Made by a program: the position numbers and the translations under genes
NCBI GenBank assembly: GCA_000165345.1
Contig: CM000429.1
Span: forward strand, 128,001-192,000
DNA: 64,000 nucleotides
Reading direction: 5' to 3'
Notes under the pieces: model-generated
What the model saw: only the letters and a program-made list of their open reading frames with translations
Database searches by the model: none
What the model was told of the DNA's origin: nothing
Shown here: piece after piece, positions 13,550 through 13,730 of the stretch
How the letters are laid out: every line of letters begins with the position of its first letter
Numbering within the stretch: the stretch's first letter is position 1

Positions 13550-13730
13550 AATCCATGCAAATTCTGCTTACCCACTAAATTGCATGCATGCAAGCGGTAG
13601 ATCTATTAAACTTCTACATGCAAGTAGATTGATTGGGCGGGAATCCGCTGGGGGGGGGTGGAGAACAGAAATTATAATTAAAAAAAACTTAAAGCTAGTT
13701 TGCATGCGGCGCCTAAAGAGCGGTAAGTCA
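13550..13730. promoter_or_regulatory. Dense promoter motif island upstream of the giant secreted-protein gene: TGCATGCATGCA, GGGCGGGAA (E2F-like), a G9 run, TGCATGCGGCGCC
   Basis: It lies 320-500 nt upstream of the ATG at 13229 on the reverse strand. Reading directly: ttgcatgcatgcaagcgg (about 13582-13600), gggcgggaatccgctgggggggggtgg (13635-13662), tttgcatgcggcgcctaaagagcgg (13700-13725). Confidence 0.5.

Follow-up and report, generated by a model that had tools for sequence, protein, structure and literature searches.

The 64,000 nucleotides of DNA analyzed here, hereafter called the window, are part of chromosome 1 of Cryptosporidium parvum and carry numerous copies of two families of short words. 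The first includes the palindrome TGCATGCA and the half-sites CATGCA/TGCATG, which match the motif assigned to AP2_1-class ApiAP2 domains (AP2-type words). The second includes GGCGGGAA and TTGGCGCC, has GGCGSS as its strict core, and resembles sites for the E2F/DP heterodimer (E2F-type words). A preliminary description made from the letters alone had flagged positions 13550 to 13730 as one case of a pairing of these words in nearly every intergenic region, and had proposed that they mark core promoters in a Cryptosporidium genome. The lineage call was right because the window proteins are identical to C. parvum entries: the carrier and dynamin proteins share 100% identity with records named Cryptosporidium parvum, and a 438-amino-acid protein is encoded identically on record CP029780.1 (881,470 bp; GCA_031892065.1). 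The window corresponds to approximately 133.5 to 197.5 kb of that record in the same orientation, and adding 133,477 converts a window position to a record position.

According to NCBI gene calls, the window holds 19 genes, among which are those for dynamin, a mitochondrial carrier, Utp11, an ABC transporter, glutaminyl cyclase, a SPRY protein, and dynein heavy chain. Five large proteins of the window gave no Pfam matches, a search for paralogy among the large unannotated proteins (g8/g9 and g11/g15) found no paralogues, and no E2F or DP gene was found among the genes of the window. Four genes were each assigned a single intron on the basis of annotated protein length:

4422 to 4575 (154 nt): first intron of the dynamin gene
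14782 to 14919: intron of the carrier gene
15811 to 15866: intron of the Utp11 gene
35938 to 36181: intron of g12

With these boundaries, the window was divided into 51,999 bp of genes (31% G+C) and 18 intergenic regions totaling 12,001 bp (26% G+C). Fourteen of the intergenic regions face at least one start codon and are called promoter-bearing below, and the other four are convergent.

Both word families are far more abundant than expected by chance. Enrichment was judged against dinucleotide shuffles of the whole window and against an analytic order-2 Markov model, which is the stricter control because it was built from intergenic DNA alone:

TGCATGCA, whole window: 7 observed, 0.53 expected from shuffles
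GGCGGGAA, whole window: 11 observed, 0.09 expected from shuffles
TTGGCGCC, whole window: 8 observed, 0.09 expected from shuffles
GCATGC, intergenic: 11 observed, 0.78 expected from the Markov model
CATGCA/TGCATG, intergenic: 34 observed, 3.3 expected from the Markov model
GGCGGGAA, intergenic: 9 observed, 0.09 expected from the Markov model
GGCGCC, intergenic: 6 observed, 0.37 expected from the Markov model

The observed counts of TGCATGCA, GGCGGGAA, and TTGGCGCC were reached by none of the shuffles. The words are also concentrated between genes, where their density is 7 to 17 times that within genes. Intergenic DNA has 18 copies of GGCGSS (2.0 expected) and genes have 9, only 2 copies of GGCGGGAA are genic, and the 15 copies of GCATGC in the window comprise 11 intergenic and 4 genic ones, the latter being divided equally between the dynamin intron and exons. 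Coding sequence avoids these words: the 10.8 kb of dynein coding sequence contains no AP2 or E2F core, and the 7.6 kb of g3 contain one half-site only. Moreover, the proposed excess in intergenic relative to coding DNA was borne out by an unbiased ranking of 6-, 7-, and 8-mers, in which the two families lead after poly-A/T (CATGCA, GGCGGG, GCATGC, GGCGGGAA, GCATGCAA, GGCGCCAA, and TGCATGCA).

G-box words (GGGGGG and GGGTGG) rank next. All seven copies of GGGGGG are intergenic, AGGGTGG/CCACCCT has four intergenic copies and one genic copy, and GGGTGG-type words lie beside AP2-type or E2F-type sites at 4495, 13515, 13650, and 16306. A further candidate, HTAGVTCW/TAGATCT, showed no significant enrichment in the window as a third word. 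The consensus derived from the window is (T)TTGGCGGGAA(A) and TTGGCGCCAA(AA) for the E2F type, with T-rich 5′ and A-rich 3′ flanks and words that match TTTGGCGGGAAV or DTTGSCGCCH. For the AP2 type, the flank matrix is T-GCATGC-A, and the words match the BGCATGCAH or [T/C]GCATGC[A/G] class. The variant GGCGGT/ACCGCC (TGGCGGTAA), seen at 24186-24194 and also at 846, 29222, and 51506, is likewise enriched in spacers, with five intergenic copies versus two genic ones, and it supplies an E2F-like core to both promoter-bearing spacers that lack GGCGSS. We claim no orientation rule because the orientation of GGCGGGAA relative to the downstream gene is mixed. Three short convergent spacers (624 nt in total) hold no sites where about 2.3 are expected, a sample too small to serve as evidence.

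Most of the individual positions listed in the preliminary description could be recovered. Ten of its 11 E2F-like coordinates are exact, and the eleventh (17822-17828) reads AGCTTTC, the true GGCGCC being at 17834. For the 16 GCATGCA-type coordinates, a CATGCA/TGCATG word lies within about 10 nt in 14 cases, but the full GCATGC is present in only 10. There is no motif at 24469, the nearest being TGCATG at 24455, and position 37489 offers just GCATG. The "triple palindromic cluster" at 31197-31222 does consist of three half-sites, including the 14-nt palindrome CATGCAATTGCATG, but not of full GCATGC words. Sites that had been overlooked are found between genes at 13708, 15390, 16285, 37505, 38971, and 52872 and within genes at 2839-2882, 21862-21891, 28570-28660, and 37240.

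The flagged region lies upstream of g3, which encodes 2527 amino acids on the minus strand and has its ATG at 13229. The features found there are as follows:

13509 to 13630 (about 120 nt): conserved putative cis-regulatory block upstream of g3, delimited by five-species alignment and a sliding profile
13515 to 13521, minus strand: CCACCCT (GGGTGG), a G-box-like word on the margin of the block, conserved in four species
13554 to 13559: CATGCA half-site, TTTGCATGG on the minus strand, kept in four of five species
13581 to 13592: TGCATGCATGCA, two overlapping TGCATGCA (AP2_1) palindromes, 352 to 363 nt upstream of the g3 ATG
13598 to 13604: TAGATCT between AP2 sites, invariant in five species
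13617 to 13622: CATGCA half-site, CTTGCATGTAG on the minus strand, with TGCATGT invariant in five of five species
13636 to 13643, plus strand: GGCGGGAA, E2F-type site, 407 nt upstream of the g3 ATG
13650 to 13658, plus strand: run of nine G residues (G-box class, G.GGGG), partly conserved

The block at 13509-13630 is the strongest conservation peak of the 697-nt spacer between g3 and g4. In the sliding profile, 3.0 to 3.6 of 4 species are identical there versus about 2 elsewhere, and the block shows almost no change across the species from C. parvum to C. felis, whereas its flanks can barely be aligned. Read in the orientation of the downstream gene, it is CTTGCATGTAGAAGT-TTAATAGATCTACCGCTTGCATGCATGCAATT. 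Within it, CATGCATGCA at 13581-13592 is invariant in C. parvum, C. meleagridis, Cryptosporidium chipmunk genotype I, C. canis, and C. felis, and the TAGATCT word fits the 'Unknown set 1' motif HTAGVTCW (Table 1 of PMC3734150). The core TTCCCGCCCAA of the E2F-type site at 13636 is kept in C. parvum, C. meleagridis, and the chipmunk genotype, and C. canis and C. felis have a displaced CCCGC. At 13650, C. meleagridis has C6 in the minus-strand alignment (G6 on the plus strand), and the other species have no run. In sum, the flagged module spans 325 to 480 nt upstream of the g3 ATG and contains three to four AP2-type sites, one TAGATCT, one GGCGGGAA, the G9 run, and a conserved GGGTGG.

Preferential conservation is not confined to this block. 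Comparison loci were reached through the carrier orthologue in C. meleagridis, chipmunk genotype I, C. canis, C. felis, and C. muris, and three further loci were reached through dynamin. In alignments of six orthologous spacers, 74% of motif bases are invariant among C. parvum, C. meleagridis, and the chipmunk genotype, versus 55% of other intergenic bases (Fisher P = 3e-6). Among the five intestinal species, the corresponding values are 32% and 13% (P = 3e-9). The AP2-type sites at 13581-13592, 13617, and 17874 are kept in five species. Furthermore, both word families are again in intergenic excess in the four other intestinal species, including C. canis, whose spacers have 48% G+C. The numbers of CATGCA words per kb are as follows:

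C. meleagridis: 5.2 intergenic versus 0.23 genic
Chipmunk genotype I: 4.0 intergenic versus 0.28 genic
C. canis: 5.0 intergenic versus 0.27 genic
C. felis: 1.6 intergenic versus 0.31 genic

The words are both far above chance and preferentially conserved in five intestinal species of widely differing G+C content.

A different pattern was found in C. muris, for which two loci syntenic to the carrier and dynamin regions (L012 and L015) provided spacers totaling 8.07 kb and genes totaling 28.6 kb. CATGCA/TGCATG shows no enrichment at these loci, with one copy in spacers versus six in genes, and the density in C. parvum predicts about 23 in the spacers. GGCGSS (five in spacers, none in genes) and GGCGGT (four in spacers, none in genes) are both present, each without the TTT/AAA flanks. 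From this small sample, the TGCATGCA arm of the promoter grammar may be specific to the intestinal lineage and missing from that of C. muris, a gastric-lineage species.

The proposed pairing is overstated, because only the E2F class comes close to occupying all intergenic regions. The strict core GGCGSS is present in 12 of 14 promoter-bearing regions, and all 14 have a core if GGCGGT is accepted. AP2-type words occupy 9 of the 14, and both types coincide in just 7 (8 of all 18 intergenic regions). The grammar is one in which E2F-type sites are almost everywhere and AP2-type sites are found in about two thirds of regions. Likewise, the proposed co-occurrence within 50 to 150 nt is above chance at the shorter distance but no better than chance at the longer one, as judged by permutation for the 18 intergenic E2F cores:

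CATGCA-type site within 5 nt: observed 4 of 18, permutation mean 0.94, P of about 0.007
CATGCA-type site within 50 nt: observed 8 of 18, permutation mean 3.8, P of about 0.009
CATGCA-type site within 150 nt: observed 8 of 18, permutation mean 7.55, P of about 0.53

The closest pairs are four tight composites of the form CATGCA-N(1-2)-GGCG(G/C)(G/C), which represent a small lead beyond the cited literature:

5325 to 5342, plus strand: TGCATGCAATGGCGGGAA, 2-nt gap, 714 to 724 nt upstream of the dynamin ATG
13701 to 13713: TGCATGCGGCGCC, AP2-type word abutting GGCGCC
17834 to 17847: GGCGCCATTGCATG, 2-nt gap, reading CATGCAATGGCGCC on the minus strand
47901 to 47914: TGCATGTTCCCGCC, 2-nt gap, in the divergent region between g15 and g16, with TGCATGCA at 47933

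The composites at 5326 and 17836 have the 12-mer CATGCAATGGCG in common, and the chipmunk genotype keeps ACCGCCATTGCATG with the same spacing at the former. At 17834, C. meleagridis has the same spacing, the gap in C. canis is longer by one base (3 nt), and four species keep GGCGCC. Nearby are GCATGCA at 17873 and TTGCATG at 17874, which is kept in five species. The composite at 13701 is kept in C. meleagridis and reads GGCGGC in the chipmunk genotype, and C. canis retains only TGCATGCA. Given these arrangements, AP2_1-class and E2F/DP factors may act jointly at a composite with a fixed spacing of 1 to 2 nt.

Some sites are located where no annotated gene starts. Exons contain just two copies of GCATGC in 52 kb of genes, and all three exonic GGCGCC words are neighbors of these, no more than 35 nt away (5 to 30 nt for the dynamin and g9 clusters). 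Exonic clusters are found at 2839-2882 (dynamin), 21862-21891 (g8), and 28570-28660 (g9). In the g8 coding sequence, the minus strand at 21862-21891 carries the E2F-type words TTGGCGCGC and TGGCGGGAAAA 22 nt apart. This pair uses rare codons (GCG accounts for 3.7% of the codons for Ala and CGC for 1.3% of those for Arg). Chipmunk genotype I and C. canis retain the two sites and C. meleagridis retains one, making this segment a candidate intragenic or antisense promoter. The dynamin cluster encodes a low-complexity AAGARAGQMGANGMQ insert. Its GGC GCC pairs are both kept in the chipmunk genotype, C. canis keeps one and has GGC GGG for the other, and the GCATGC is not kept. E2F sites in coding sequence may be maintained by selection on rare synonymous codons and may drive internal or antisense transcripts. 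The exonic sites would fit the published promoters of antisense long noncoding RNAs (lncRNAs) (PMC7840661), and a tie to particular lncRNAs would be an extrapolation from that report.

A second such location is the 835-nt convergent spacer at 19274-20108, which is a convergent intergenic region without an annotated gene start:

19296 to 19319: TGCATGCG-N10-TTGGCGCC

The same spacer also carries GGCGGGAA at 19784, TTTGGCGGGAAAA, and CATGCA, and its sites (19282-19319, 19784, and 19992) are kept in C. meleagridis and partly in the chipmunk genotype. This spacer may hold an unannotated transcript. Separately, a block conserved in five species and without a known motif is present at 19604-19644.

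We consider it very probable that the words are transcription factor binding sites that form compact promoter or regulatory modules of C. parvum genes. Their restriction to intergenic DNA and their conservation across species support the view that they are regulatory DNA. Under this proposal, the TGCATGCA/CATGCA words are predicted sites for AP2_1-class ApiAP2 domains (those of cgd2_3490 and cgd1_3520, and others according to published arrays), and the (T)TTGGCGGGAA(A) and TTGGCGCCAA words are predicted to be bound by the E2F/DP heterodimer. Both would be accompanied by G-box and TAGA(T/C)C words, and 13550-13730 would be one such module, located upstream of g3. The identities of the binding proteins and the marking of sporozoite open chromatin by E2F are taken from the literature, whereas activation of the neighboring gene by each site and the positions of the transcription starts are inferred. 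Forty-seven of the 52 intergenic AP2-type and E2F-type words (16 of 18 E2F cores and 31 of 34 half-sites) lie upstream of an annotated start codon, at distances from the nearest ATG of 76 to 724 nt for the E2F type and 93 to 1009 nt for the AP2 type.

Several points weigh against this proposal. The sites are relatively far from the ATG (median of 363 nt for the E2F type and 502 nt for the AP2 type), and the core-promoter label is not established given these long and broadly distributed distances. The sites at 19274-20108, 2839-2882, 21862-21891, and 28570-28660 lack an annotated gene start, and therefore not all sites can be promoters of flanking mRNAs. Most such cis-elements are without functional validation according to a review (PMC12246861). 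Finally, no AP2 motif was reported in sporozoite peaks from the assay for transposase-accessible chromatin with sequencing (ATAC-seq) (Xiao et al. 2025, bioRxiv 10.1101/2025.01.17.633476). Because sporozoite open chromatin lacks this motif, AP2 sites may act only at other stages.

Three other explanations were considered. Chance or base composition, by which the clustering would be an artefact of the difference between intergenic and coding sequence, has virtually no likelihood of being correct. Although intergenic DNA is the more A+T-rich compartment and raw counts are raised by overlapping palindromes (e.g., TGCATGCATGCA), expectations from intergenic trinucleotide content are 10- to 100-fold below those observed, and no whole-window dinucleotide shuffle attains the observed counts. 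Also, the words enriched in this A+T-rich compartment are themselves G+C-rich, the enrichment recurs in the G+C-richer spacers of C. canis, and the sites are conserved above background. This explanation is excluded because of the Markov, shuffle, C. canis, and conservation controls. An origin of the words as remnants of a dispersed repeat or mobile element carrying both is extremely improbable. An all-against-all BLAST comparison of 127-nt segments from 32 sites found no similarity past the motif and its immediate flanks, the sole exception being a weak 62-nt match of 77% in A+T-rich sequence, and tandem repeats occur only inside two genes. Such an origin is ruled out by these two scans, even though some sites have 15 to 20 nt in common (e.g., CATGCAATGGCG at 5326 and 17836, or TTTTGGCGCCAA at 15318, 37505, and 38971).

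It is also conceivable, if unlikely, that the words are functional binding sites of which a sizeable share drives antisense or intergenic lncRNAs or polycistron-internal transcripts, or serves as boundary or 3′-end elements. The conserved sites of the convergent spacer, the three exonic clusters with their proximity of GGCGCC to GCATGC, and the rare-codon pair of g8 that is kept in three to four species are all consistent with this idea. So is a published analysis of 396 C. parvum lncRNAs, which are mostly antisense: E2F/DP1 and AP2_1 occupy the first two ranks among motifs in the 100 nt upstream of them (Li et al. 2021, PMC7840661). In that study, the spacing of the motifs to lncRNA starts followed no clear pattern. 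E2F motifs are also found in polycistron spacers (bioRxiv 10.1101/2025.01.17.633476). However, the upstream placement of 47 of the 52 intergenic words, and the E2F-type core of every promoter-bearing region when GGCGGT is allowed, weigh against it. This explanation complements that of promoter modules for a minority of sites and does not replace it. A more elaborate proposal, in which AP2/E2F composite action, exonic E2F sites kept through rare codons, and an intestinal-only TGCATGCA arm all apply together, is a tentative one that we hold to be rather doubtful.

The remaining sites of the window, listed below, are distributed over the upstream regions of several genes and one intron:

4474 to 4500: CGCATGCATGCA plus GTGGGG, within the first intron of dynamin
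15315 to 15326: TTTGGCGCCAAC, palindromic E2F site in the divergent carrier-Utp11 region, 150 nt upstream of the Utp11 ATG
16285 to 16292, minus strand: GGCGGGAA, 195 nt upstream of g6 and adjacent to a conserved GAGGGG/TAGAC block at 16300-16345
24431 to 24438, minus strand: GGCGGGAA, upstream of g8
24494 to 24501, 24558 to 24571, and 24186 to 24194: GGGCGGGG, TGCATGTGCATGCG, and TTACCGCCA, respectively, further sites upstream of g8
31196 to 31219: CATGCAATTGCATGTGCACATGCA, three AP2 half-sites in the divergent region between g10 and g11
39321 to 39328, plus strand: GGCGGGAA, upstream of the ABC transporter gene
38969 to 38978 and 37505 to 37513: TTGGCGCCAA and GGCGCCAAA, respectively, two further intergenic sites
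51131 to 51138, plus strand: TTTTGGCGGGAAAA, in the divergent region between g17 and g18, with GCATGCA at 51572

The pair in the dynamin intron, TGCATGCATGC with CCCCAC/GTGGGG, also occurs at the equivalent place in the chipmunk genotype (L013, 2231-2255) and C. canis (L014, 298-328), which suggests that the intron holds a putative regulatory element. GGCGCC at 15318 is invariant in five species, and GGCGGGAA at 16285-16292 is kept in four. Upstream of g8, four to five species retain TGGCGG(G/C)AA at 24433, and TGGCGGTAA at 24186-24194 is invariant in five. An AP2-type site at 24020 is kept in four. The AP2 cluster at 31196-31219 is 470 nt from the E2F site GGCGGGAA at 31690.

Other features were noted in passing. 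Two blocks conserved in five species have no AP2 or E2F core: that at 16300-16345 combines a G-box with a TAGAC-type word (AATCTAAAAATTACCCCTC and GTAGAC), and that at 24078-24118 contains GTATCTAGAGGTATC on the minus strand. The only Rfam or ARAGORN match in the window is a tRNA-Leu gene (anticodon TAG) at 24853-24933 on the minus strand, in the spacer between g8 and g9. C. canis and C. felis, whose loci reach this far, have a conserved copy, and a tRNA-like GGTTCGA is present at the syntenic place in C. muris. One copy of the 8-mer CAACTCGG/CCGAGTTG falls inside this tRNA gene. Its three copies (24916, 30766, and 39233) are all in spacers, versus 0.04 expected. The gene-free stretch at 464-2003 is, at 1.5 kb, long for this genome. 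It contains TGCATGCA at 1371 and 1470, with the closest start codon approximately 900 to 1000 nt away, as well as a C6 run with ACCGCC at 839-851, and it has no Rfam family and no long open reading frame. Noncoding RNA genes were considered as the content of this stretch and of 19274-20108, and Rfam and ARAGORN gave nothing in either. In-frame tandem repeats were found in g3 (5910-7002; periods of 15, 27, 54, 66, and 108 nt; 43% G+C with strong AT skew) and g12 (36575-36805; period of 63 nt), and the proteins of both genes gave no Pfam matches.

A reading from raw sequence thus recovered the lineage and its two dominant promoter motifs, and both motifs hold under strict statistics and phylogenetic footprinting. 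The practical value lies in individually conserved sites, such as the 13509-13630 block, GGCGCC at 15318, and TGGCGGTAA at 24186, which could serve as targets for mutation in reporters. Almost no Cryptosporidium cis-element has been functionally validated according to the review literature (PMC12246861). If true, the composite spacing, the rare-codon E2F sites, and the lack of AP2_1 words in C. muris, three small leads beyond the cited papers, would inform how E2F-based and AP2-based regulation coexist and diverge within the genus.

Nothing here is new in kind, because earlier publications already describe the motifs, the proteins that probably bind them, and how abundant they are across the genome. 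Reportedly, the AP2_1 motif was first noted in C. parvum by Bankier in 2003, and a 2007 paper by Mullapudi is said to be among the earlier publications of these upstream motifs. To our knowledge, Cryptosporidium alone among apicomplexans has retained E2F/DP. The findings amount to a rediscovery of known elements because the window consensus reproduces the published logos, both classes of which were matched as the preliminary description had anticipated (PMC3734150, PMC4117751, PMC12246861). The review lists AP2_1 (TGCATGCA) and E2F ([A/T][C/G]GCGC[G/C][A/T]) as over-represented upstream of genes, crediting Bankier 2003 and Oberstaller 2013 (PMC12246861).

For AP2_1, the published logo is BGCATGCAH, and [T/C]GCATGC[A/G] is bound by cgd2_3490 on protein-binding arrays (PMC3734150). 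Oberstaller 2014 added cgd1_3520 as a binder of TGCATGCA, and the relevant ApiAP2 domains of these two proteins are orthologues of P. falciparum PF14_0633 (PMC4117751). The window word is identical, palindromic, often overlapping or paired, and confined to upstream or noncoding DNA, and it differs in no way in kind. What is added here is the conservation of single sites in five species, the conserved copy in the dynamin intron, and the lack of enrichment at two C. muris loci. The G-box (G.GGGG), which is bound by the ApiAP2 protein cgd8_810 (PMC3734150), is represented in the window by GGGGGG words confined to intergenic DNA, and the G9 run at 13650 is a poorly conserved example.

The E2F-like motifs 3 (DTTGSCGCCH) and 4 (TTTGGCGGGAAV) were catalogued together with the G-box by Oberstaller 2013 (PMC3734150), and the window consensus reproduces both of these published forms of the eukaryotic E2F/DP site TTTSSCGC. 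C. parvum has the E2F genes cpbgf_1001560 and cpbgf_6001430 and, as DP genes, cpbgf_7003650 plus cpbgf_8001850 (PMC12246861; bioRxiv 10.1101/2025.01.17.633476). That E2F is the most widespread motif of the window agrees with its presence upstream of 161 of 200 co-expression clusters (PMC4117751) and its dominance in sporozoite ATAC-seq peaks and polycistron spacers (Xiao et al. 2025, bioRxiv 10.1101/2025.01.17.633476). Across the genome, the published ATAC-seq data place such sites in accessible chromatin at transcript 5′ ends. The GGCGGT(AA) variant, which is not named in the cited Cryptosporidium motif papers, is intergenic-specific and deeply conserved here. Lastly, the same two motifs that were reported at lncRNA promoters (PMC7840661) are found in this window both inside genes and in the gene-free convergent spacer.

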